Both the position numbers and the translations under genes were made by a program. The notes under the pieces were generated by a model. That model was given only the letters and a program-made list of their open reading frames with translations, ran no database searches and was not told where the DNA came from. This document shows, one piece after another, positions 147 through 54,630 of a stretch of 64,000 nt of DNA; within the stretch, counting starts at the first letter, position 1, and every line of letters starts with the position of its first letter. The stretch is from Gaiellaceae bacterium (GTDB lineage: Bacteria; Actinomycetota; Thermoleophilia; Gaiellales; Gaiellaceae), in the NCBI GenBank assembly GCA_035540835.1, contig DATLFU010000023.1, positions 2,228-66,227 of the forward strand, in the 5' to 3' direction.

Positions 147-859
147 CCCGGCGCCGCCTCCCCCGGGAACAGGTCGTCCTCGCCGAGCCAGCGCGCCACG
201 AGGTTCGCCGTCAGGACGAGGTGCGACCGCAGCGCCTCGTCGGCCGCGTCGGCGTCGTGCGCCGCGCACGCCTCGACGATCCGCTGGTGCTCGCGGGTGC
301 GCCGCTGGAGCGATCCGCTCGCGTGCAGCGAGGCGATCCGGTACCGCTCGCTGTTCTCCCACAGCGGCCGGATCAGGCGCGGCAGCCACCGCGAGCCGGA
401 CGCGTCGTACAGGCCGAGGTGGAACGCGGCGTGCGCCTCGCGGCCTGCGCGGAGGTCGCCCGCGCGGTAAGCGCGCACGTGCTCGTCGATCCGCCGGTGC
501 GCAGCCGCGGCGTCCTCCTCCGTGAACCGCGCCGCCGCGCGCCGCACCGCGAGCGTCTCGAGGGCGAGCCGCGCCTCGTAGGTGTCGCGGAGGTCGTCGA
601 CCGAGAGGCGGCTGACGCGCGCCCCGCGGTGCGGGACGTGCTCCGCGAGCCCGAGCGCCTCGAGCTGCCGCACGGCCTCTCGCACCGGCATCGGGCTCAT
701 CTCGAGCGTCCGCGCGAGCTTCTCCAGGCGGAGCGGCGTGCCGGGTGCGATCTCGCCGTGGAGGATCGCTTCCTGCAGGTCGGCGAGCGCGCGCTCGGCG
801 AGCGTGCGCGGCCGCCGGCGATCGGTGGTGGCCACGGTCGCAGTTTGACACTTGATCAA
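143..859 (-). CDS. GntR/FadR-family transcriptional regulator (winged HTH + FCD-type ligand domain)
   Basis: 238-aa ORF. HTH segment LRLEKLARTLEMSPMPVREAVRQLEALGL followed by a helical His-containing C-terminal domain. Divergent from the transporter operon. Confidence 0.8.
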   Translation of the reverse strand: MIKCQTATVATTDRRRPRTLAERALADLQEAILHGEIAPGTPLRLEKLARTLEMSPMPVREAVRQLEALGLAEHVPHRGARVSRLSVDDLRDTYEARLALETLAVRRAAARFTEEDAAAAHRRIDEHVRAYRAGDLRAGREAHAAFHLGLYDASGSRWLPRLIRPLWENSERYRIASLHASGSLQRRTREHQRIVEACAAHDADAADEALRSHLVLTANLVARWLGEDDLFPGEAAPG

Positions 860-885
860 AAGCGCTTCAAAGTGCCCCTCTCGCG

Positions 886-1827
886 GTGATCGAACGGGTC
901 TGCATCGCCGGCGCCGGCGTCATCGGCAGCCTCTTCGCGGGACACCTCGGGCGCGTCTGCGAGGTGGGGGTGCTGACGCGTCGCCGCGAGCACGCGGAGG
1001 CGCTCGCGGCGGAGGGCCTGCGCGTCTCGGGACGTCACGAGCTGACCGCGCGGGTGCGCGCCTCGACCGACCCCGGCGACCTCGAGGCCGACCTCGTCAT
1101 CGTCGCGACGAAGGCGACGGAGCTGCGCGCGGTGGCCGAGCGGATCGCCGGCCACTTCCCCGGCGCGGCGGTGATGACCGTCCAGAACGGCCTCGGCGCC
1201 GAGGAGATCGTGCGCGCCCACGGCGACTGGCCGCTGATCTCGGCGGTGACGTTCATGAGCGGCACCCGCCACTCCGACACGCACGTCGAGTACATCCTCG
1301 ACACCGAGACGTGGATGGGGCCCTACGAGGGGACGCCGTTCGAGCTCGTCCAGGAGGCCGGCCGCCTCGTCGAGCGCTCCGGCCTCAACGTGGAGGTGCT
1401 GCCCGACCTGCGGCCCGCGCAGTGGTCGAAGCTGATCTTCAACGCGACCGTCAACGCCGTCGCCGCGCTCACCGGCCTCCCGCACGACCACCACTTCGCC
1501 GACCGCGACCGCGCCGAGGATCTCGGCCACCTCGTGCACGAGCTCGTCGAGGAAGGGAGGCGCGTGGCGGCCGCCGCCGGGATCGAGCTCCACGACGACC
1601 CGTGGGAGATGAACGTCCTCGCGACGCGCCGCGGCAGCGCGCACTACCCCTCGATGCTCGAGGACGTGGAGGCGCGGCGGCGGACGGAGATCGACCTCAT
1701 CACGGGGTCGCTCGTGCGCGAGGCCGAGCGGCTCGGCGTCCCGGTCCCGCTGCACACGGCGCTCCTGCGGCTCGTCAAGGCACGCGAGGCGTCGTGGGAT
1801 TTGATCAAACCCGCGGAGGTCGGTTAA
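886..1827 (+). CDS. 2-dehydropantoate 2-reductase family oxidoreductase (ApbA/PanE fold), paralog 1
   Basis: N-terminal Rossmann motif IAGAGVIGS. C-terminal PSMLEDVEARRRTEIDLITG block typical of ketopantoate reductases. Confidence 0.75.
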   Translation: MIERVCIAGAGVIGSLFAGHLGRVCEVGVLTRRREHAEALAAEGLRVSGRHELTARVRASTDPGDLEADLVIVATKATELRAVAERIAGHFPGAAVMTVQNGLGAEEIVRAHGDWPLISAVTFMSGTRHSDTHVEYILDTETWMGPYEGTPFELVQEAGRLVERSGLNVEVLPDLRPAQWSKLIFNATVNAVAALTGLPHDHHFADRDRAEDLGHLVHELVEEGRRVAAAAGIELHDDPWEMNVLATRRGSAHYPSMLEDVEARRRTEIDLITGSLVREAERLGVPVPLHTALLRLVKAREASWDLIKPAEVG

Positions 1828-1867
1828 CGTCGCCGCGGAAGCCCACGAGGAAGAGGAGGCGTAGGTA

Positions 1868-3124
1868 ATGGCATCCAGGAGGAGTCGACCCCGGCTCGTG
1901 GCGCTCCTGCTCGCGGGCGTGCTCGTGCTGGGCGGCGCGGGCTGCGGTGGGGACGACGACGCGGCCGCACCGGCCGACCCCGCGCAGACGGGCGCCGAGC
2001 AGGAGGGCGACACGCAGCAGGAAGAGGGTCCGATCACGATCGGCTGGGCGTACGACGCGTCCGGGCAGATGGCGCCGTTCGACGGCCCGGCGCTCGCCGC
2101 GGCGCAGATCCGGGTGGAGCAGCTCAACGAGCAGGGAGGCGTCGACGGCCGCGAGCTGCGGATCGAGACGTGCGACACGCAGAACAACGATCCGGCGCGC
2201 GCGCGGGTGTGCGCGACGGAGCTCCTCGAGGGCGGCGCGGACATCATCTTCGTCACCTGCGACGTCGACTTCGCCACGCCCGTCGTGCAGGAGGCGATCG
2301 GCCAGGGCGTCCTGGCCGTCGCTCCGTGCATCGGCACCGACCAGATGGGGCCGAGCCGATTCGGCGAGCAGGGGCGGCTCGCGTTCAGCTTCGGCAACGT
2401 CGCCCAGGACGAGGGCGCGGCGATGGCGGAGTGGGCGTGGGACCGCGGCTGGCGCACCGCGGCGCTGGCCACGAACACGGTGATCGTCTACTTCCAGAAC
2501 GTCGTCGACGCGTTCGAGGCGCGCTTCACGGAGCTCGGCGGCGAGATCGTCGCGCAGGAGACGTACGCGACCGGCTCCGACAACGTCGATGCGGCCGTCA
2601 GCCGGTTGAACGCCGTTGGCGCCGACGTGATCGTCACCTCGACCGCGTTCGGCGAGCTGCCGGCGTTCGTCTCCGGCCTGCGCGGGCTCGGGAACGACAC
2701 GCCGATCCTCAACTCGTGGGCCGGCGACGGGACGTACTGGGTGACGGACAACCCGCCGGTGACGAACTACTACGCGGTCACGTACGCGTCGGTGTTCGGC
2801 GACGACCCGAGCGAGGACGTCCGCGGGCTGATCGAGCAGCTGACGGAGCAGGGCGCGCAGCCGGGCACCGGCGGCTTCCTCGCGGGCGCGGGGGCGATCG
2901 ACGGCGTCGTCGAGGCGATCCGCCGCGCCGACGGCTCGACCGAGGGGCAGGCGCTCGCCGAGGAGATGGAGCAGTTCGACGACGTCGAGACGATCTCGGG
3001 CAACGTCAACTTCTCGCCGGAGCTGCACACCGTCTTCGGGCGCGAGTACCGCGTGATCGAGATCCAGAACAACGAGGGCCGGTACGTGGAGGGCGTCACC
3101 GCGACGTCCGTTCCCGAGATCTAG
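1868..3124 (+). CDS. ABC transporter substrate-binding lipoprotein, LivJ / branched-chain amino-acid type
   Basis: Lipobox LLAGVLVLGGAGC, gaggagg SD upstream of the ATG, periplasmic binding fold. First gene of a five-gene transporter operon. Confidence 0.8.
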   Translation: MASRRSRPRLVALLLAGVLVLGGAGCGGDDDAAAPADPAQTGAEQEGDTQQEEGPITIGWAYDASGQMAPFDGPALAAAQIRVEQLNEQGGVDGRELRIETCDTQNNDPARARVCATELLEGGADIIFVTCDVDFATPVVQEAIGQGVLAVAPCIGTDQMGPSRFGEQGRLAFSFGNVAQDEGAAMAEWAWDRGWRTAALATNTVIVYFQNVVDAFEARFTELGGEIVAQETYATGSDNVDAAVSRLNAVGADVIVTSTAFGELPAFVSGLRGLGNDTPILNSWAGDGTYWVTDNPPVTNYYAVTYASVFGDDPSEDVRGLIEQLTEQGAQPGTGGFLAGAGAIDGVVEAIRRADGSTEGQALAEEMEQFDDVETISGNVNFSPELHTVFGREYRVIEIQNNEGRYVEGVTATSVPEI

Positions 3125-3900
3125 TGGCGGCGGCCGCCGCGGCGGAACCTGCACGGGGGCCCGGAGGAGCGCTCCGGGCCCTCGGCGTCTCGCGGTCGTT
3201 CGCGGGCGTGCGGGCGCTGGACGGCGTCACGCTGGAGGTGCACCGCCACGAGGTCGTCGGGCTGATCGGCCCGAACGGCGCCGGGAAGTCGACGCTCGTG
3301 AACCTGCTCAGCGGCTTCGACCGGCCCGGCGAGGGACGGGTGGAGCTGGAGGGCGAGGACGTGACCCGCTGGAGCGCGCACCGGCGCGCGCGGGCGGGTC
3401 TCGCGAGGACGTTCCAGCACAGCCGCGCGTTCACGGGCCTCGCGGTCCGCGAGAACGTCGAGGTCGCGGCGCTCGGGGTCGGCGCCGGCCCTCGCGAGGC
3501 GCGGCGGCGCGCGGACGCCCTCCTCGAGCTGCTCGGCGTCGGCGGTCTCGCCGACGCGCCGGCCTCGGCGCTCGCGCACGGCGACGAGCGCCGGCTCGGC
3601 GTCGCACGCGCACTCGCGACCGAGCCGCGGTTCGTCCTGCTCGACGAGCCGGCCGCCGGGCTGCCGGAGTCGGAGGTGCCCGAGTTCGCCGCGGTCGTCC
3701 GCTCCGTCCGCGACGAGCACGACGCGGGCGTGCTCCTGATCGACCACAACATGGCGCTCGTGATGGAGGTCTGCGACCGCGTGCACGTCCTCGACCAGGG
3801 GCGCACCCTCGCCGTCGGCACCCCCGCCGAGATCCGCGCGAACCTCGACGTCACCGCCGCCTACCTGGGGGAGAGCGCGGCCGCGGGTGCGGCGGCGTGA
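3124..3900 (+). CDS. ABC transporter ATP-binding protein (LivG-like)
   Basis: GTG at 3124 overlaps the TAG of the preceding gene. Walker A GPNGAGKST and Walker B VLLDEP. The track ORF 2170..3900 is an N-terminal over-extension. Confidence 0.85.
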   Translation: MAAAAAAEPARGPGGALRALGVSRSFAGVRALDGVTLEVHRHEVVGLIGPNGAGKSTLVNLLSGFDRPGEGRVELEGEDVTRWSAHRRARAGLARTFQHSRAFTGLAVRENVEVAALGVGAGPREARRRADALLELLGVGGLADAPASALAHGDERRLGVARALATEPRFVLLDEPAAGLPESEVPEFAAVVRSVRDEHDAGVLLIDHNMALVMEVCDRVHVLDQGRTLAVGTPAEIRANLDVTAAYLGESAAAGAAA

Positions 3901-4616
3901 GCGCCGCCGAGCCGCTCCTCGCGCTGCGCGACCTGGAGATCCGCTACGGGACCGTCGCGGCCGTCCGGGGGCTCTCGCTCGAGGTGCGGCCGGGCGAGAT
4001 CGTCGGCCTGATCGGCCCCAACGGCGCGGGGAAGACGACGACGCTCCACGCGGTGATGGGCGCGGTTCCGCACGCGGGCGGCGAGATCCTCCTCCGCGGA
4101 GAGCCGCTGCGCGCTCGCTCGCCGGAGGAGGTCGCGCGCGCCGGCGTCGCGCTCGTGCCGGAAGGGCGCCGCGTCTTCCCGAGCTTCACCGTCGAGGAGA
4201 ACCTCCGGCTCGGGCTCGCCGCGCGCCGCGACGGCGGCACCGCGGCGGAGGCTCTCGAGGAGGCGTACGCGCTGTTCCCGATGCTGGGGGAGTTCCGGCG
4301 GCGGCCCGCGGGCGTGCTCTCCGGCGGACAGCAGCAGCAGCTCGCGATCGCACGCGGGCTGGTCTCGGCGCCCGCGCTCCTCCTGCTCGACGAGCCGTCG
4401 CTCGGCCTCGCGCCGACGGTCGTGGACGCCGTCTTCGGCGCCCTCGCCGACATCCGCGACCGCGGCGTGACGGTGCTGCTCGTGGAGCAGCGCGCGCAGC
4501 GGACGGTCGCGTTCGCCGACCGCACGTACGTGCTGGCGAACGGCGAGCTGCGCGCGACGCTCGGACCCGCCGACGCGGCCGCGACCGACCGGCTCGTGGC
4601 CGCGTACCTCGCATGA
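3897..4616 (+). CDS. ABC transporter ATP-binding protein (LivF-like)
   Basis: Walker A GPNGAGKTT, signature LSGGQQQQLAIARGL, Walker B LLLDEPS. 4-nt overlap with the upstream gene. Confidence 0.9.
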   Translation: MSAAEPLLALRDLEIRYGTVAAVRGLSLEVRPGEIVGLIGPNGAGKTTTLHAVMGAVPHAGGEILLRGEPLRARSPEEVARAGVALVPEGRRVFPSFTVEENLRLGLAARRDGGTAAEALEEAYALFPMLGEFRRRPAGVLSGGQQQQLAIARGLVSAPALLLLDEPSLGLAPTVVDAVFGALADIRDRGVTVLLVEQRAQRTVAFADRTYVLANGELRATLGPADAAATDRLVAAYLA

Positions 4617-16798: not shown

Positions 16799-17257
16799 CT
16801 AACCCGGGAGCGCGTCGAGCACGCGCTGCGCGTGGCCGTCCGGCTTCACGCCGTAGAGCGCCTTGACGACCGTCCCGTCCTCGCCGATCACGAACGTCGA
16901 GCGGTTGACGCCCATGTACGTGTTGCCCCGGAACGTCCGCTCGCCCCAGACGCCGTACCGCTCCGACACCTCGTGCCCCTCGTCGGCCAGCAGCGTGAAC
17001 GGCAGCGCGTGCTTCTGCTTGAACTTCCGGTGCGACTCCTCGTCGTCCGGGCTGACGCCGAGGACGACGGCCCCGCGCTCGACGAACGCGTCCCACGCGT
17101 CGCGGATCCCGCACGCCTGCGTCGTGCATCCGGGGGTGTCGTCCTTGGGGTAGAAGTAGAGGACGACGGGCCTGCCGCGGAGGTCCGAGAGCCGGATCGT
17201 CCCGCCCTCGTCGCTCGGCAGCTCGAAGTCCGGTGCGGGCGTTCCCTCTTCGACCAT
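16799..17257 (-). CDS. bcp: thiol peroxidase / peroxiredoxin Bcp
   Basis: MVEEGTPAPDFELPS...VVLYFYPKDDTPGCTTQACG peroxiredoxin motif. Internal ATG at 17257 chosen over the track start 17293, which collides with the divergent gene. Confidence 0.85.
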   Translation of the reverse strand: MVEEGTPAPDFELPSDEGGTIRLSDLRGRPVVLYFYPKDDTPGCTTQACGIRDAWDAFVERGAVVLGVSPDDEESHRKFKQKHALPFTLLADEGHEVSERYGVWGERTFRGNTYMGVNRSTFVIGEDGTVVKALYGVKPDGHAQRVLDALPG

Positions 17258-17292
17258 GCGGCGTCTCGACCTCCCGGTAGGGTGCGGCCGCA

Positions 17293-17646
17293 ATGCTAGT
17301 CGTGCACGCCGTCCTCGCCGTGGTCGTCGTCGCGGTCGCGGCGGCGGGCGCGATCTGGGGCTTCGTCGCCTACCGTCGGCCGCGTGCGCGCAGCCCCGTG
17401 CTCGACCAGGTGCTCGCGCTCGCGCAGACGGTCCTCATCGCGCAGGTGGGGGTCGGGCTCTACCTGCTGACGCAGGGGCGCCGCGCCCCGCACGACCTCC
17501 ACTACGCGTACGGGACGTTCGCGCTCGCGGCCGTCCTCGCGCCGTGGCTGTACGCGCCCGACGAGCCGCGGCGCCGGCTGCTGTGGTTCGCCGCGGCTAC
17601 CCTCGTGGCGGCGGCGTTCGCCGCCCGCGCCTACACCACCGGCTGA
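17293..17646 (+). CDS. hypothetical membrane protein
   Basis: 117 aa, about 4 hydrophobic segments, coding-like GC3. Stop overlaps the next start (ATGA-type). Confidence 0.5.
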   Translation: MLVVHAVLAVVVVAVAAAGAIWGFVAYRRPRARSPVLDQVLALAQTVLIAQVGVGLYLLTQGRRAPHDLHYAYGTFALAAVLAPWLYAPDEPRRRLLWFAAATLVAAAFAARAYTTG

Positions 17647-46241: not shown

Positions 46242-46268
46242 GATGCGCCTGGCAGGAATCGAACCTGC
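46242..46268. repeat. att direct repeat, distal copy (orphan tRNA-Arg 3' fragment)
   Basis: GATGCGCCTGGCAGGAATCGAACCTGC is identical to 54556-54582. Confidence 0.85.
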
Positions 46269-46296
46269 CTGCAAATAGGCATCTTTTCCAGCTCGA

Positions 46297-46318
46297 GGAC
46301 AGCACCGGGGACAGCACC
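46297..46318 (+). repeat. tandem 10-mers GGACAGCACC x2 (12-nt register), candidate integrase arm-type sites
   Basis: GGACAGCACCggGGACAGCACC sits 28 nt inside the island from the att copy. The same doublet occurs at 54458-54479. Confidence 0.5.
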
Positions 46319-46362
46319 GTGCGCGCGCGGGCGGCCGCGTCCGAGCGGTTTCGCCGCGCCGA

Positions 46363-47418: not shown

Positions 47419-48471
47419 TCAGCCGCTCGTCCCGGCAAGCAGGACGACGTAGTCGAGCTCGGTCTCGTCGGTGAGGACGTGCGTGTAGGTATTCGCGGTT
47501 ACCGCGAGGTTGCGCTGGCCGACGAGCTCGCCGATACGCGCCCAGGGGACGCCGCGCAGGTGCTCGAGCGAGATCCGCCGGTGGCGGAGGTCGTGCGGCG
47601 AGAACGCCGGTACGCCGGCGGCGGTGCAGGCGCGCGCGACGGCGGTGCGGAAGCGGTCGCCGCCGAAGCCCTGGAAGACGCGGCGCTCGGGCGTTCGGTC
47701 TTCGCGGGGCACGAGCTCCAGCACTGCGTCGAAGATCGGCGGCGGCACGTGCACCCAGCGCCCGCGTCCGGTCTTGGACACCGCCTGCGAGACGCGCCAG
47801 CGTCCGCGTCCCTCGTCGACGTCGCCCCAGGCGAGCTGCTCGAGCTCGCCGAGCCGCATCCCGGTCGCGTCGAGGACGAGGAGAGGGAGCCTGTACCGCC
47901 GCGGGAGCAGCGCGTAGACGGCGAGCACGTGCTCGCCCGCCGGCGGCGCGATCTCCGGCCGCTGCTCGCGCGGGAGCCGGATGCGCACACGGTCGCGGGC
48001 AGGGTTCGGCGCGATGCCGGCGTGGTCGAGGACCATCGCCACCGCGTTGACGACCTTGCGGATCGACTCGCGCTTCGCGCCTTCGGCGTCGAGCCGTGCC
48101 ACGAGCTCGGCGACGTCCTGCGCCGACATTGCGTCGACCCGCCGCCTGCCGAGCGCGGGCAGCGCCTTGCGGATCGCCGTCCGGTGCTGCAACCGCGTCG
48201 CCTCGGCGATGTCGACGCGCGACTCCTGCCAACGCCGCGCGGCCTCCGCGAACGGCGGCGCGAGCGCCGGCTCGCCGAGCAGCTTCAGGTCCGGCACGCG
48301 GAGGGCCGCGAGCTCGCCGCCGATCCAGTCCCGCCGGCTCTTCGCCTCCCGCATCGTCCTGAAGGAGCCGCCGTAGTGGATGCGGCTCTCGCGACCGCCG
48401 AGCCGGTACTCGACGCGGAACCGCCTGCCGCCGTCCTTCGTCGGCCTGGCTCTGATCCAGACGCTAGCCAC
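47419..48471 (-). CDS. int: tyrosine-type site-specific recombinase / integrase
   Basis: 350 aa. N-terminal arm/SAM-like domain and a catalytic domain with TGMRLGEL (Arg), HDLRHRRIS (HxxR) and NTYTHV (Tyr). Confidence 0.9.
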   Translation of the reverse strand: MASVWIRARPTKDGGRRFRVEYRLGGRESRIHYGGSFRTMREAKSRRDWIGGELAALRVPDLKLLGEPALAPPFAEAARRWQESRVDIAEATRLQHRTAIRKALPALGRRRVDAMSAQDVAELVARLDAEGAKRESIRKVVNAVAMVLDHAGIAPNPARDRVRIRLPREQRPEIAPPAGEHVLAVYALLPRRYRLPLLVLDATGMRLGELEQLAWGDVDEGRGRWRVSQAVSKTGRGRWVHVPPPIFDAVLELVPREDRTPERRVFQGFGGDRFRTAVARACTAAGVPAFSPHDLRHRRISLEHLRGVPWARIGELVGQRNLAVTANTYTHVLTDETELDYVVLLAGTSG

Positions 48472-49913: not shown

Positions 49914-50159
49914 ATGGACATCGCCGCCCGCGTCACTTCGAAGGGGCAGATCACGATTCCGAAGCCGGTGCGCGAGGCGCTCAAGCTCACAGACGGCGAT
50001 CACGTGGTCTTCCGCGTCGTCGAGGGTGAGCGAGCGATTCTGGCGCGGACGCCGGACCTGCTCGATCTCGCCGGAGCGGTTCCGGTCCCGGCCGGCGTAC
50101 GAGGACTTCCGTGGGAAGAGATCCGCCGGCGGGCGTGGTCGGGACAGCTCCGCGGTTGA
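49914..50159 (+). CDS. vapB: AbrB/MazE/SpoVT-family antitoxin (VapB-like)
   Basis: RVTSKGQITIPKPVREALKLTDGDHVVF is the SpoVT-AbrB swapped-hairpin motif. Confidence 0.8.
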   Translation: MDIAARVTSKGQITIPKPVREALKLTDGDHVVFRVVEGERAILARTPDLLDLAGAVPVPAGVRGLPWEEIRRRAWSGQLRG

Positions 50160-50554
50160 CCGCGTTCATCGACTCGAACGTCCTCATCCGACATCTGACC
50201 GGCGATCCGCCCGATCAGGCGAGGGCTGCGACCGGGTTCCTGCGAAGCGGCGAGAGCTTCATCCTCGTCGATCTGGTCGTGGCGGAGGTCGTCTACGTGC
50301 TCGAGTCCGTCTACGAAGTCGAGCGAGAGCGGGTTGCGGAGCTCGTTCGCGCGATCCTGGCCTTCGCGTCGGTGGCCGTACCGGACGAGCCGTTGCTCCT
50401 CCGCGCGCTCGAGATCTACGAGCAGTATCGGATCCACTTCGCCGAGTCGTACCTTGCCGCCTGCGCAGAGTTCTCAGGAGTTGGAGTCGTCGCCTCGTTC
50501 GACCGTGACGTCGACCGCCTGACATCGATTCGCCGGCTCGAGCCGACCGCCTGA
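50156..50554 (+). CDS. vapC: PIN-domain ribonuclease toxin (VapC-like)
   Basis: TTG at 50156 overlaps the vapB stop (TTGA). FIDSNVLI (Asp1), AEVVYVLE (Glu), ESYLAACA and SFDRD acidic residues in PIN order. An alternative GTG lies at 50111. Confidence 0.75.
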   Translation: MTAFIDSNVLIRHLTGDPPDQARAATGFLRSGESFILVDLVVAEVVYVLESVYEVERERVAELVRAILAFASVAVPDEPLLLRALEIYEQYRIHFAESYLAACAEFSGVGVVASFDRDVDRLTSIRRLEPTA

Positions 50555-50685
50555 CGGACCTTGACCAGGCGTGTCGGATCCGCCCAAACGCGTCAAACGC
50601 GACCGAACGCGCATACGGCGTGCCCCCACTGGCGCCCCCATCGCCTCGAAAAACCGATTAGCAGGATTGTTTCGAATCTCACGAC

Positions 50686-51090
50686 TGGTCGGGATCAGCT
50701 ACCTCGGCGCCGCCTGCATCATCTTGGCGAGGTCGGCGACGTCCGCCGTATCGCCAGCAAGGCCCGCTTCGCGCGCTTGAACGGCACCGCCCCGATCCCC
50801 GCCTCCTCCGGCCAGACGCAGAGGTCACCGGCTGGAACAAGGGCGGCACCGTCGGCTCAACCACACGCTGGACATGATGGCGCTCACCCAGGCCCGCCAC
50901 GACCCGCGCGCCCGCGCCTACCTCGAGCGGCGGCGCGCGGAAGGCCGCACCCACCGCGAGGCCCTCCGCGCCCTCAAAACGGGACCTCTCCGACGCCGTC
51001 GACCAGCAGCTCCGCCGCGACGCGGGACTCACGGCACCCGCCTTGACATGGGAGCTCATCACGATGCGAGGCCAGGGCGGCTCGTGGTGA
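50686..51090 (+). pseudogene. IS110-family transposase, 3' remnant with multiple frameshifts
   Basis: Three reading frames must be spliced to read GISYLGAACIILA / EVGDVRRIASKARFARLNGTAPIPASSGQTQR / HRLEQGRHRRLNHTLDMMALTQARHDPRARAYLERRRAEGRTHREALRALK / RDLSDAVDQQLRRD. The N-terminal DEDD domain is absent. Confidence 0.7.
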
Positions 51091-51386
51091 CCACGAGCCG
51101 CGCTTGGCTCGTCGGTTCCTGTGCGAGGGGCGCGACGCCTGCTCGAGGCTCACGAATGCGTCCCCCACATGAGCTCTGCGGAGTGCTTCATCTTCCGAAG
51201 GGAGCGAGGAGTTGACAGGCGTCGAAGCAGACGTCATGCTCTGCGTGACGCAGGGGGAGCCGTGGTTCGTGCCTACACTTCCTTTGCTGCGGCATCTTCA
51301 TCGTCATGGCGTGCTGGGCTGCTTCCCATGGCGCGCGCGTGAGAGCCATCGCCGTGCGCGGTAGGGCGATCGATCCAGGGGACGCT

Positions 51387-51962
51387 ATGACGATGGAGGC
51401 GGCGGCGCTTGGCTCGCGATTCCTGCTGGCATTTGTATTGATCCTCGCCAGCATTCCGAAGCTCGCCGCGCAGCAGGAGTTCGCTCGCGCTGTTGAGAAC
51501 TATGGCCTCGTCCCGCGGTTTCTGGTTCGGCCCTTTTCTCGTACACTGCCCGCGTTCGAACTCCTGGCGGGATCGGCGCTCCTCGCTGGCGTCGCCATCG
51601 CGGCGGTGTCCGTGGCAGTCACCGGCATGCTTCTGATCTTCGCCACCGCGATCACGTGGAACCTTCTGCATGGTCGGAAGATCGAGTGCGGTTGCGCTGG
51701 ATCTGCTCTGCCTCGCGTGATTTCGTGGCACCTGGTCGCACGTGATCTGTTCCTCGCTGCGGTCGCGGTCTTTGTGGCTCTCGCCGCTTTCGCGGGAATC
51801 GCGGGTTCGTTCTTGTCGCCACCGGAGGGAGTCGCAGCCGGCGATGCGGTCGCCGTACTGCTCATTGCGGCGCTCCTTGTATTCAGCGACGCCTTGATCG
51901 CGGATGGTTTCCGCGCTGCATCCGCCTCACACGCGTTTTCCAACCGTACCGGATCGACATGA
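51387..51962 (+). CDS. MauE/DoxX-family redox-associated membrane protein
   Basis: ATG at 51387. 4-5 TM segments. LGSRFLLAFVLILASIPKLAAQQEFARAVENYGLVP and HGRKIECGCAGS (CGC motif) as in MauE-type proteins. Confidence 0.7.
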   Translation: MTMEAAALGSRFLLAFVLILASIPKLAAQQEFARAVENYGLVPRFLVRPFSRTLPAFELLAGSALLAGVAIAAVSVAVTGMLLIFATAITWNLLHGRKIECGCAGSALPRVISWHLVARDLFLAAVAVFVALAAFAGIAGSFLSPPEGVAAGDAVAVLLIAALLVFSDALIADGFRAASASHAFSNRTGST

Positions 51963-52549
51963 GCGGTCCCTGGATGATCGCGTTCAGCGTCCTTACCGGA
52001 GTGGTCGTGATTCTCGTCCTGATCGTCTTCGGCATTCTGCGCCGAGTCTCAGTGGTGCTTGAGCAGGCCGAGGCCGCTCTCCAAGCGAACGGGCCGCCGC
52101 GCCCGAGCGGACTCCCCCCGGGTACGCGCCTCCCCGCTTTCGAAGGCGTCACATCCGGCGATTCGCATTTCGCCAGCTCAAGTCTTCGCGGTACGCCGGC
52201 GGTCCTTGTTCTGCTTGGCCGGAACTGTCCTAGCTGCCGAGCACTCGAAGCTGAGTTGGCGGCGGTGAAGGTTTCGGAACTCGGGGTTCGCGTCGTCGCC
52301 ATCGTCAATGGTGCCGAGCACGCGGAGCGTCTGAGACGAACATCCGAACTGGAGGTCGTTCAACAGCTTGACCACAGCGTTGCGAAGGCCCTTCAGAGCA
52401 CTATGACGCCACACGCGTTCGTGATCGACGCCGAGGGCGTGATCGAGGAAACGGGGATCCCAAGTAGCTTCGAGTCTTTGCGAGCTTTGACTATGAGTGT
52501 CCGGAGACGCGACCAACAGACGGAGACAAGGGAAGTTGCGCGCGCTTGA
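51959..52549 (+). CDS. membrane-anchored thioredoxin-fold thiol:disulfide oxidoreductase (TlpA/ResA/MauD-like)
   Basis: ATGA overlap with the MauE-like gene. N-terminal TM, then LPAFEG...PAVLVLLGRNCPSCRAL (CxxC) and TPHAFVIDAEGVI. Confidence 0.7.
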   Translation: MSGPWMIAFSVLTGVVVILVLIVFGILRRVSVVLEQAEAALQANGPPRPSGLPPGTRLPAFEGVTSGDSHFASSSLRGTPAVLVLLGRNCPSCRALEAELAAVKVSELGVRVVAIVNGAEHAERLRRTSELEVVQQLDHSVAKALQSTMTPHAFVIDAEGVIEETGIPSSFESLRALTMSVRRRDQQTETREVARA

Positions 52550-52738
52550 CCAGAGTCGCTTCTATCGGCACGCTACCGTCGTCGAAGCGGCAAGCCTTGG
52601 AAATGCCTGACGCGATTAGCCACATCCGGAAGCGGCAACGGCGATTCATATATTGACTAGGAGTCATGAGAGGAGGTGGTGAGGCAGAGATTCTCCACTC
52701 CTGTAACGAACGTAAGAAGTCGAAGGGAGAGAATCGCG

Positions 52739-52993
52739 GTGGTCGAGCAAGTCACGACTAATCGGAAGAGCTTTCTGCGGCAGATCGGAGTCACTATAGG
52801 GGCCGCCTTTGGAGCGCTCGCACTCCCCGCGGTGGCCCGGGCCGCACAAAACCAGTGCTGCCCGACCAATCACAGTGTGTGCCCCGAGTGTCCTCCGAAC
52901 TCGGTGCCGTACTGGTGCGACTGCTCGCCGCACCTGCCGTCTTACTGTCAGTGTCGACAGAGCGATACTGGGTGCGACCCCGCTCCTTGCTAA
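52739..52993 (+). CDS. small exported cysteine-rich peptide (10 Cys in the last 45 residues), Tat-like RK signal
   Basis: GTG at 52739 with GGGAGAG SD 7 nt upstream (the track start 52676 abuts its SD). TNRKSFLRQIGVTIGAAFGALALPAVARA / AQNQCCPTNHSVCPECPPNSVPYWCDCSPHLPSYCQCRQSDTGCDPAPC. Confidence 0.6.
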   Translation: MVEQVTTNRKSFLRQIGVTIGAAFGALALPAVARAAQNQCCPTNHSVCPECPPNSVPYWCDCSPHLPSYCQCRQSDTGCDPAPC

Positions 52994-53104: not shown

Positions 53105-53869
53105 TCAGCGCCAGCAGTGGCGCGCGGCGTAGAGCTGGACGCTCGTCCTCGTTGCGGTCGCGAAGGCCAATGGGCGTCCGTTCTGGGTACGAACTGCAAT
53201 GGCTCCTTGGGTGATCCTTCCTCCGCGCGCTGCCATCAGTCGCGGCGAGACCGCCACCCAGCGCGACGGCCGCTCGAAAGTTGCGCGAATCCGAACTAGC
53301 ACCTGCCGAGGAGCCTCGCACTTCTGCTTCTCCTGGAACATTGCGCGACCCCCCGCGAGGCCGGTCATGGCGAGCGGCACCTGTGCGTTCACGACGCGGC
53401 AATCCTGGCGGCTGTAACGTGCCTGCCCCGTCCACGGCGAGGTATCCGGGTATCGGTCAGTCTGCAACGAGATCCACGTTCCGGTCTCGGCGCCGCCGCT
53501 CGTCATGCTGACGCTGCTTGGCACCGGCCCCAGCGGCTCGCGCCGCGTAGGTACGGGCGGAGTCGCCACCATCTCGATCATCCGCAGACCTCCCTGTACT
53601 TGCGTGGAACAGAGGAGCGTCCGGTCGACTACGCGGGCACTAGGAGTCGCGGCTTGATCCTGGAGGGCACGCTCTGCGCCGAGGGCGGCAAGTGCGAGCA
53701 CAAGGACCGTCGCTAGCGCGATGCCGCCGATCAGCGGCACGCGCCGGCGGCGGGCTGCGTGTTCGGTTTGGGCGAGCAGGTTCATGATTCCGCGCTCGGC
53801 CGCGGCAGGCGCCACGTCGGGCGTTGCCGCGCGGGCCTCGCGCAGGAGCGTCTCGAGATTAGGCTGCAT
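53105..53869 (-). CDS. putative anti-sigma factor / single-pass membrane protein with 4-Cys ectodomain
   Basis: ATG at 53869 overlaps the sigma gene end by 11 nt. Short cytoplasmic N-terminus, TM VPLIGGIALATVLVLALAALG and a ~180-aa outside domain. No zinc-binding anti-sigma motif seen. Called by position only. Confidence 0.4.
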   Translation of the reverse strand: MQPNLETLLREARAATPDVAPAAAERGIMNLLAQTEHAARRRRVPLIGGIALATVLVLALAALGAERALQDQAATPSARVVDRTLLCSTQVQGGLRMIEMVATPPVPTRREPLGPVPSSVSMTSGGAETGTWISLQTDRYPDTSPWTGQARYSRQDCRVVNAQVPLAMTGLAGGRAMFQEKQKCEAPRQVLVRIRATFERPSRWVAVSPRLMAARGGRITQGAIAVRTQNGRPLAFATATRTSVQLYAARHCWR

Positions 53870-54398
53870 TCTCTTCCTCCTTGATCGCCTCGCGGAGTTC
53901 GGCCCGCGCGCGGCTGAGACGAGCGAGCACCGTGCCGACCGGGACGCCGAGCACATCGGCGATGTCCTTCACGGCGTAGTCGAGCCAGTAGTGGAGGACA
54001 ACGACGATCCGCTTCTCGGCAGGCAGAGCTGCGACCGCCTCGGCGACCGCGACCTGCGCGTCGCTCGCCTCCTCGTTCCACCGCGGCGCCGCCTCGTCTG
54101 GCGGCTCGGCGACGCGAACGAGTCTGCGGTCGCGCCGCAGCTCGTCGAGCGCGCAGTTGACCGCGATCCGGGTGATCCAGGGGCGGAGCGGTCGCGTCTC
54201 GTCAAAGGTGTCCAGCGAGCGGATGACCCGGTGGATCGCCTCCTGGGTCACGTCGTCGGTCGCCGTACGATCGAGCAGCACGCGGTAGGCGGCCTGCCAG
54301 GCGACGTTCCAGTACTTGTCGGCCAGGCGCGCAAGCGCCTCGCGGTCGCCGCGGCGGACGAGCCGGACCAGGATCGCGTCGTCGCTTGGGCGCGCCAT
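53859..54398 (-). CDS. ECF-type RNA polymerase sigma factor
   Basis: Region 2 (DVTQEAIHRVIRSLDTFDETRPLRPWITRIAVNCALDELRR) and region 4 (YAVKDIADVLGVPVGTVLARLSRARAELR). Confidence 0.85.
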   Translation of the reverse strand: MARPSDDAILVRLVRRGDREALARLADKYWNVAWQAAYRVLLDRTATDDVTQEAIHRVIRSLDTFDETRPLRPWITRIAVNCALDELRRDRRLVRVAEPPDEAAPRWNEEASDAQVAVAEAVAALPAEKRIVVVLHYWLDYAVKDIADVLGVPVGTVLARLSRARAELREAIKEEENAA

Positions 54399-54457
54399 CT
54401 GCTCTTTCTACTGTGGCGAGCGGCTGCTTATTGCAACTCGCGCCGGCGGAAGTCCGA

Positions 54458-54479
54458 GGACAGCACCGAGGACAGCACC
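54458..54479 (+). repeat. tandem 10-mers GGACAGCACC x2, candidate integrase arm-type sites (tRNA-proximal arm)
   Basis: GGACAGCACCgaGGACAGCACC lies 76 nt inside the island from the att copy, in the same orientation as 46297-46318. Confidence 0.5.
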
Positions 54480-54555
54480 ATTTGCGCTTTTGCGGCACGG
54501 GCGTCACCCGTGACGCACGTAACCATGCGGGTTTGCGCCTTTGGCCTACCCTCTT

Positions 54556-54582
54556 GATGCGCCTGGCAGGAATCGAACCTGC
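54556..54582. repeat. att direct repeat, tRNA-proximal copy
   Basis: Identical 27-mer. Covers the T-arm and 3' acceptor strand of tRNA-Arg plus 2 nt downstream. Confidence 0.85.
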
Positions 54583-54630
54583 GACCTTGCGCTCCGGAGG
54601 CGCACGCTCTATCCCCTGAGCTACAGGCGC
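54558..54630 (-). tRNA. tRNA-Arg (anticodon CCG)
   Basis: The reverse complement reads GCGCCTG-TA-GCTCAGGGGATAGAGC-G-TGCGC-CTCCGGA-GCGCA-AGGTC-GCAGGTTCGATTCCTGC-CAGGCGC-A. No encoded CCA. Confidence 0.9.

Follow-up and report, generated by a model that had tools for sequence, protein, structure and literature searches.

What is the task of a mauE-mauD-like gene pair that is followed not by the light chain of a methylamine dehydrogenase (MADH) but by a small, cysteine-rich peptide? The question is raised by a contig of a Gaiellaceae bacterium, of which a stretch of 64,000 nucleotides (hereafter the window) was analysed. Within positions 51387-52993, three co-directional genes can be read, encoding a MauE-like membrane protein, a membrane-anchored thioredoxin-like (Trx-like) protein and the precursor of a Cys-rich peptide. 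A previous reading made from the DNA letters alone (the sequence-only reading) had pointed out this trio and had proposed that the two membrane proteins are dedicated to the oxidative folding, or other thiol handling, of a small disulfide-rich peptide that the cell secretes, a view that is supported by the present analysis. We consider it fairly probable that the module serves to produce a small mini-protein knotted by disulfides and to export it, by way of a dedicated oxidative-folding relay.

The three genes and their products

The trio consists of the following features:

51387..51962, forward strand: MauE-family membrane protein, 191 amino acids (aa), five hydrophobic segments (Pfam MauE, E=2.9e-24)
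51959..52549, forward strand: thioredoxin-fold protein with one N-terminal membrane anchor, 196 aa (AhpC-TSA, E=3.3e-8; Redoxin, E=1.1e-6)
52739..52843, forward strand: twin-arginine translocation (Tat)-type signal peptide, residues 1-35 of the precursor (..TNRKSFLRQIG.., hydrophobic region, AVARA site; from the family consensus and TAT profiles)
52844..52993, forward strand: mature 49-aa peptide AQNQCCPTNHSVCPECPPNSVPYWCDCSPHLPSYCQCRQSDTGCDPAPC and stop codon; 10 Cys, the last residue being Cys

The enzyme families previously suggested for the first two genes hold in profile searches. The MauE-like protein reaches 86.3 bits against Pfam MauE (PF07291; cut-off 27), covering profile positions 2-126 of 128, and an identical NCBI protein bears the name 'MauE/DoxX family redox-associated membrane protein [Gaiellaceae bacterium]'. 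The expected CGC motif is present in RKIECGCAGS and was placed in the loop between transmembrane segments (TM) 3 and 4. When ten MauE homologues were aligned, K25 (TM1), E58 (TM2) and C101-G-C103 were invariant; the Phe-Gly that usually follows CXC is variable in homologues of the window type. Two MauE proteins are known to substitute for DsbB in E. coli in a manner that needs the CXC motif, a Lys and a Glu are conserved in MauE proteins, and MauA is present in only 10% of MauE-bearing species (10.64898/2026.03.05.709764). The CGC, Lys and Glu of the window protein match the active-site features shown or proposed for these DsbB-replacing proteins, and it may well be a quinone-linked disulfide generator.

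The start codon of the Trx-like gene lies inside an ATGA that overlaps the MauE stop codon, indicating translational coupling, and no further in-frame start codon exists upstream of 51959. Both this overlap and the CPSC active site had been described correctly. The protein also has a TP (cis-Pro) loop, and CxxC and TP are invariant in ten homologues. Its best named NCBIfam model is MauD (TIGR02661), matched end-to-end (residues 7-182 against profile positions 3-179 of 189), but with 31.4 bits it falls below the equivalog cut-off of 188.6, whereas the true MauD of locus L022, from a Binatia metagenome-assembled genome (MAG), scores 241 bits. The architecture is that of MauD, with a hydrophobic N-terminal anchor, a CxxC thioredoxin fold and a gene directly after that of MauE, and the protein would be the direct oxidant of the peptide. 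Another thioredoxin match in the window (16799-17293) resembles, by sequence, a soluble peroxiredoxin; it was rejected as a topology control because it has no hydrophobic anchor.

The precursor is 84 aa long, with a GTG start at 52739, a 35-residue signal and a 49-aa mature part beginning after ARA, at AQ. Ten cysteines, a single Trp and a mature part of this length had all been anticipated, and so had the open reading frame (ORF), but not its start, which had been listed at 52676. We place the true start at 52739 because P0001, a metagenomic homologue with 96% identity, begins at the equivalent position, because a ribosome-binding site (AGGGAGAG) lies 7 nt upstream of the GTG, and because 1-nt and 2-nt indels relative to the related locus L001 disrupt the frame in 52676-52738. 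Over the 84 codons the window and L001 differ at 10 synonymous and 3 non-synonymous positions.

An exhaustive phmmer search among 1.84e9 representatives returned 48 clusters (50% identity) at E<=1e-3. Members are 79-113 aa long apart from P0026, a repetitive protein of 3874 aa that matched 'AAQNQC' by chance and was rejected. When homologues of the 105-aa ORF were sought with a word index, a single near-identical protein was all that was retrieved, and the peptide had no tblastn match among plasmids. The family consensus runs from SRRxFLRxxG through a hydrophobic stretch and AxA to CC-C-C-C-C-C-C-C-C, finishing in Pro-Cys. In an alignment of 53 sequences with a mean column identity of 28%, Cys is conserved fully or to no less than 90% in each of its ten columns. 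Exactly 10 Cys occur in 54 of 70 unique members and an even number in 65 (93%), which fits complete disulfide pairing. The peptide is 20% Cys and contains CC, CxC and CxxC motifs. A compact model of three beta strands was obtained from AlphaFold2 when the family alignment was supplied (predicted local distance difference test, pLDDT, 83-89 over the mature part).

The earlier expectation that the peptide is exported can be made more specific, since its signal appears to be of the Tat type. Among the 53 members, TIGR01409 TAT_signal was matched by 25 and formate_TAT by 32, and these were the only profile matches; no Pfam or NCBIfam model covers the mature part in any of them. The best PDB sequence match of the family is the Tat signal peptide of NapA; for the mature peptide no PDB relative was found by family-profile search, nor by Foldseek with the AlphaFold2 model. 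Judged by these searches, the peptides would be an unnamed, widespread family of Tat-signal, ten-Cys mini-proteins. In the Tat motif the first Arg is invariant, and the second is replaced by Lys in five members and by Gly, Pro, Thr or Ser in others; a substituted second Arg is often followed by another Arg (R-x-R-F-L), which is unusual for Tat signals.

Could the peptide nevertheless be a light chain of MADH? The sequence-only reading had noted that a heavy subunit and a mauG-like gene are missing and that the peptide cannot be a subunit of a tryptophan tryptophylquinone (TTQ) dehydrogenase. Indeed, when the eight mau proteins of the canonical Methylobacterium pLVM1 cluster (L029, mauFBEDA-amicyanin-JG), used as the reference, were compared with the 64-kb window by tblastn, only MauE (35% identity) and MauD (26% identity) found a match, and none of mauB, mauG, mauF, mauJ and amicyanin was detected there. 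The MADH light chain model (PF02975, Me-amine-dh_L) matched none of the 53 members at E<=0.1; the true mauE-mauD-mauA locus recovered in L022, with its MauA at E=2.6e-49, served as positive control for this search. The family profile had no match among PDB MADH chains at E<=10, and the best Foldseek comparison had E=6. Homology to MauA was rejected on this lack of sequence or fold similarity, and TTQ is impossible because the one Trp is unconserved across the family. Since only MauE and MauD were matched and the peptide is unlike MauA, the arrangement parallels mauEDA, the order of the true mau loci L022 and L029, but is not a methylamine system.

Recurrence, partner genes and the island

A survey of gene neighbourhoods, proposed together with the sequence-only reading, found the order MauE-Trx-peptide in 21 loci, the window and 20 others, with the peptide gene directly after the Trx gene in every one. 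Look-ups that started from peptide homologues met the trio in 5 of 5 cases (L006-L010), and those from MauE homologues in 4 of 4 (L002-L005, counting an uncalled peptide ORF in L005). A MauE-pattern scan, which covered one genome per species, yielded 18 loci, 11 of them with the peptide after the pair. The hosts are Gaiellaceae and other Actinomycetota, MAGs of Thermoleophilia and Acidimicrobiales, and one Ca. Limnocylindria (Chloroflexota) MAG, and in ten aligned loci MauE identity to the window goes down to 30%. With the recurring order, the Cys columns and the excess of synonymous changes, the trio is more than a chance arrangement.

A fourth partner is found at every trio locus that has downstream sequence. 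Twelve loci have, after the peptide gene, one for a duplicated FtsX permease (about 915 aa); the ATP-binding cassette (ABC) ATPase encoded near it is closest to LolD, MacB, FtsE and bacteriocin exporters. In eight loci (window, L001, L002, L003, L004, L007, L011, L019) the partner is instead a membrane-anchored protein with four conserved Cys, here called 'dom', which a family hidden Markov model (HMM) detects. Its homologues directly follow the peptide gene in other loci; in the window, L007 and L019 the 'dom' gene comes after one for an extracytoplasmic function (ECF) sigma factor, which is the position of an anti-sigma gene. In L007 tatA and tatC directly follow the peptide gene.

Several further observations were made in these loci. 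L006 has an uncalled second peptide paralogue (L006:7455-7697), in which 9 Cys can be read; it separates the first peptide gene from that of the FtsX permease. In an uncultured Actinomycetes MAG (L028:4100-9400), each of the genes for the ABC ATPase, MauE, Trx and FtsX is broken up among several reading frames, and no signal precedes the peptide; either the module has decayed in L028 or the assembly contains errors. Upstream of the MauE gene, L002:5840-6005 and L004:330-441 have a stretch in common (GTACTGGTCCTCCGCATGGACCGAA.ATGGATC.AAAGGTC.ATTGCGCT) together with AGTACT repeats; LuxR/GerE-type regulator genes are nearby, and the stretch may be a regulator site.

More distant MauE/Trx pairs adjoin other Cys-rich proteins, namely true MauA, a 'WCW' family, a Nocardia defensin and a Bacillus leader-type peptide. 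The 'WCW' family is a second unnamed family with Tat signals (L023:5932-6486, L026:6129-6494, L021:2332-2814, L016:3372-3914), found after distant MauE/MauD-like pairs in MAGs of Solirubrobacteraceae, Thermoleophilaceae, Anaerolineae and Limnocylindria. Its mature part of about 75 aa has the motif C.LC...SC..C..WCW..C..H...CCE (CSWCWWGxCH...CCE) and no Pfam or NCBIfam match; in L026 tatA and tatC are nearby, and in L021 a MauF-like gene separates the pair from the peptide. Directly upstream of a MauE-Trx pair in Nocardia sp. NPDC051832 (L018:4561-4959) is a gene for an 8-Cys peptide with a Tat-type signal (RSRRSFIR). The match of this peptide to the plant defensin family Gamma-thionin of Pfam (E=1.4e-9) exceeds the gathering score, and it resembles a bacterial defensin served by an oxidoreductase pair of its own. 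The Bacillus toyonensis plasmid pDC11_2 (L030:1-440 and 797-4555) encodes two identical 64-aa peptides with 8 Cys that have neither a general secretory (Sec) nor a Tat signal; they adjoin a thioredoxin-like protein, an ABC transporter and a MauE/DoxX protein, and their leader (MFEKLVGVEPRVE) resembles those of Streptomyces MauE-associated precursors in the decRiPPter S2 Table.

In the window the trio is carried on an integrative island of about 8.3 kb at a tRNA-Arg gene. That it sits on a mobile island, beside an ECF sigma factor and a putative anti-sigma protein, had been proposed before; the island and its ECF sigma factor were confirmed, and the gene beside the latter is anti-sigma-like. 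The other features of the island are:

46242..46268, no strand assigned: distal att-like 27-bp direct repeat, left boundary of the island; a perfect copy of the tRNA-Arg 3' end
47419..48471, reverse strand: tyrosine integrase (Pfam Phage_integrase, E=2.8e-13)
49914-50159, forward strand: MazE-like antitoxin (Pfam MazE_antitoxin, E=4.8e-11)
50111-50554, forward strand: PIN toxin (Pfam PIN, E=1.1e-14)
53105..53869, reverse strand: anti-sigma-like membrane protein of the 'dom' family, 254 aa (family HMM; gene coupled to that of the ECF sigma factor)
53859..54398, reverse strand: ECF sigma factor (Sigma70_r2, Sigma70_r4_2; TIGR02937 sigma70-ECF, 93 bits, cut-off 42.9)
54558-54630, reverse strand: tRNA-Arg(CCG) gene (element 54556..54630; ARAGORN), whose 3' end holds the proximal 27-bp repeat, 54556-54582

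The island has a GC content of 0.65-0.70, compared with about 0.74 outside, and runs from the tyrosine integrase through a helix-turn-helix protein, the MazE-PIN pair and an IS110 transposase fragment to the trio, followed by the convergent genes for the ECF sigma factor and the 254-aa protein. The latter is predicted to span the membrane with a single TM, leaving a short N-terminus in the cytoplasm and, on the other side, a domain of about 190 aa in which four Cys are conserved; the window protein has no Pfam or NCBIfam match, and single-sequence AlphaFold2 gave no confident model (pLDDT 38.8). No ECF-type promoter common to the MauE and sigma genes was found by a regular-expression search of their upstream regions, and a scan for sigma-70 promoters and terminators gave nothing exceeding shuffled background. 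Near each end of the island lies a copy of a second direct repeat of 42 nt with 81% identity (46294-46335 and 54455-54496), which contains CGAGGACAGCACC twice.

The MazE-PIN pair is also found upstream of the module in L001, with 91% nucleotide identity. The IS110-family fragment, a frameshifted C-terminal piece at 50561-51215 (Pfam Transposase_20, partial) between the PIN and MauE genes, is absent from L001. Where the window has 52550-52738, two further genes lie between the Trx and peptide genes of L001 (2401-3248), one for a paralogous second peptide and one for a stand-alone 'dom' protein. The flanks of L001 are 91-94% identical to the window at the DNA level; the MauE-Trx stretch has no blastn match, and the L001 MauE has 60% protein identity. 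Comparison of the two sequences suggests that a cassette was exchanged within the island.

Proposed function and membrane orientation

In the relay that we propose, the 84-aa precursor would be targeted by its twin-arginine-type signal and cleaved after AVARA. The CPSC of the membrane-anchored Trx-like protein, an analogue of DsbA and MauD, would join the ten Cys into five disulfides; the MauE-family protein, as the DsbB analogue, would re-oxidise it via the CGC loop and would pass the electrons to the quinone pool. The fourth partner, a MacB/LolCDE-type ABC system or the four-Cys 'dom' protein, probably either protects the producing cell from the mature peptide or acts as its sensor. Because of this ABC or 'dom'/anti-sigma partner, the defensin analogue in Nocardia and the location on a mobile island, the peptide is most likely a competition (bacteriocin-like) or signalling factor. 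Some points weigh against this proposal. The window signal has RK instead of RR, and the second Arg is present in only about 55% of members; the ABC partner is absent from the window copy. As no structural relative was returned by Foldseek, nothing about function can be read from the model, and an antimicrobial or signalling role is read from gene context. Membrane thioredoxins of the TlpA/ResA-like type are often reductants. Together with the dispensability of SviF, a thioredoxin of lasso-peptide clusters (see below), this means that the pair could be accessory.

Two quite different roles for the peptide or the pair have to be considered. TlpA-type thioredoxins serve the assembly of copper centres, Tat export is typical of cofactor-containing proteins, and a peptide that is one-fifth Cys, with the motifs given above, could be a metal-binding (Cu/Zn, metallothionein-like) or cluster-binding protein whose thiols are kept fit for metal loading by the pair. 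We regard this as very improbable, since the MauE proteins that have been assayed are oxidases, nearly all members have an even number of Cys, conserved His or Met ligands and a ferredoxin-type CxxCxxCxxxCP motif are absent, and no metal transporter or chaperone gene is recurrent in the loci. Conserved aromatic and Pro positions and the predicted compact beta fold are likewise unlike metallothioneins, and on these residues, the ligands and the context the metallothionein idea was rejected. The other possibility, to which we give the smallest chance, is that the pair folds something else, for instance the 'dom' ectodomain, with the small ORF as passenger or regulator, or that the peptide is a ribosomally synthesised and post-translationally modified peptide (RiPP) or quinone-cofactor subunit needing enzymes encoded elsewhere. 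MauE has been described as a generalist (10.64898/2026.03.05.709764), and the 'dom' proteins have four conserved Cys in their predicted outer domain; yet 'dom' is present in only eight loci, whereas the peptide gene keeps its place behind Trx in all 21, even where MauE identity is at its lowest. MauA does need MauG, which is encoded a few genes away, but the peptide has no similarity to MauA, mauB, mauG, mauF and mauJ are absent from the window, and radical-SAM, YcaO, lanthionine (LanM), MauG-type and protease genes are none of them recurrent in the 21 loci. A RiPP cluster was rejected for the same lack of a recurrent modifying enzyme or protease, and because the N-terminus is an export signal and not a recognisable leader.

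A third alternative keeps the same module and changes the side of the membrane: the MauE CGC loop and the Trx domain would face the cytoplasm, and the cargo would be oxidised and folded at the membrane before export by Tat, which accepts folded proteins, as a natural counterpart of the engineered combination of CyDisCo with Tat. Counting Lys and Arg in 26 MauE-like proteins, one of them a bona fide MauE, we found 124 in loop L1, 100 in the CGC loop and 66 at the C-terminus, compared with 22 at the N-terminus, 1 in loop L2 and 16 in loop L4 on the opposite side (290 vs 39 in total). The N-terminus of the Trx/MauD anchor is uncharged and only 4-6 residues long, with LRR or LRQ conserved after the TM in all loci, and the canonical Methylobacterium MauE and MauD and the Bacillus plasmid pair show the same charge pattern. 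By the positive-inside rule, this bias predicts that both active sites are cytoplasmic. The count was made by hand, however, and not by a trained predictor, loop L1 may be an interfacial helix, and a reducing cytoplasm would oppose disulfides. The Cys-rich partners adjoining the pairs have either Tat signals (the window family, the WCW family, the Nocardia defensin and MauA) or leader-type sequences with an ABC exporter (Bacillus L030 and the Streptomyces decRiPPter precursors), and none has a Sec signal. PhoA and single-chain Fv fragments (scFv) are exported by Tat only if their disulfides form beforehand (review PMC6708511). The predicted inward active sites, the lack of Sec signals and the requirement of Tat for prior oxidation suggest, taken together, oxidation before export. 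The only MauE experiments conflict with this orientation: two 4-TM MauE proteins restore periplasmic disulfide formation in E. coli dsbB mutants, and TOPCONS puts the CXC of the tested proteins in the periplasm (10.64898/2026.03.05.709764). We therefore treat oxidation on the inner face as a tentative idea, less likely to be right than wrong, and the same holds for its extension, according to which MauE/MauD-type pairs in general, including the canonical ones of MADH, might oxidise small Cys-rich proteins on the cytoplasmic face via the quinone pool before export. If true, it would provide a natural pre-export oxidative-folding route, in which the cargo passes the folding control of Tat or goes to an ABC exporter, and would account for the Tat rather than Sec signals of MauA and of no fewer than three unrelated families of Cys-rich peptides encoded beside such pairs; if the inward orientation is right, it would also reveal how natural Tat substrates with structural disulfides fold.

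On whichever face the relay may act, a dedicated oxidative-folding module gives MauE/MauD-like pairs a concrete candidate substrate outside methylotrophy. It also defines a family, found in soil Actinomycetota and Chloroflexota that have been little studied, in which the three core genes are constant and the fourth partner is one of two alternatives; its peptides are candidates for new antimicrobials or signals rich in disulfides, accompanied by genes for immunity or sensing. The old mauE/mauD puzzle is thereby tied to a rule, namely that these pairs accompany small Cys-rich proteins that leave by Tat or ABC exporters and not by Sec.

Comparison with known systems

The closest parallel is the mau segment itself. 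In L029 and L022, as in the window, a MauE protein is followed by an anchored CxxC thioredoxin and then by a small, Cys-rich protein with a Tat signal, and the MauE CXC, Lys and Glu as well as the charge pattern of both membrane proteins are common to the window module. Unlike these clusters, the window has no MauB, MauG, MauF, MauJ or amicyanin, and its mature peptide has 49 aa instead of about 130 aa.

Generalist oxidative-folding systems offer a second comparison. DsbB-DsbA and VKOR-thioredoxin pairs likewise combine a small helical membrane protein carrying a redox-active Cys pair with a thioredoxin-fold oxidant, but they are housekeeping generalists, whereas the window pair is operon-linked to one peptide family and located on a mobile island. 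The window MauE has five hydrophobic segments where the DsbB-replacing type has four, and its charge bias predicts the opposite orientation. Closer in context are class I lasso-peptide clusters, which encode SviE (DoxX) and SviF (thiol-disulfide oxidoreductase), the latter being dispensable for sviceucin. Here, too, a membrane protein of the DoxX/MauE superfamily and a CxxC thioredoxin occur with ABC transporters in the cluster of a small disulfide-containing actinobacterial peptide; the substrate, however, has two disulfides and no Tat signal, and is shaped into a lasso peptide by enzymes dedicated to that task.

The sequence-only reading did not recognise the trio as a named system. This stands insofar as no Pfam or NCBIfam model describes the mature peptide, but not entirely, as the MauE/DsbB preprint cited above and decRiPPter are prior art. 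In the latter work, mauE accompanies three candidate RiPP families of Streptomyces, one of which has mauD as well; these families are uncharacterised, their precursors have at least 8 Cys, and it was proposed that the mauE and mauD genes modify the precursors (PMC7794033; Kloosterman et al. 2020). These families resemble ours in having MauE/MauD homologues outside a mau cluster and beside a small precursor of at least 8 Cys, and the Bacillus plasmid locus is a relative of the decRiPPter type with a bacteriocin-type ABC exporter. The decRiPPter precursors differ by a short non-Tat leader (e.g. MFKKLEAVGSALLERLVPRVDA) and another Cys spacing; the window family has a Tat-type signal, other partners and other hosts (Thermoleophilia, Acidimicrobiia and Chloroflexota). 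In summary, a thiol-oxidoreductase pair beside a Cys-rich secreted peptide is a known arrangement, and what is new is an unnamed peptide family with a Tat-type signal and defined partners.

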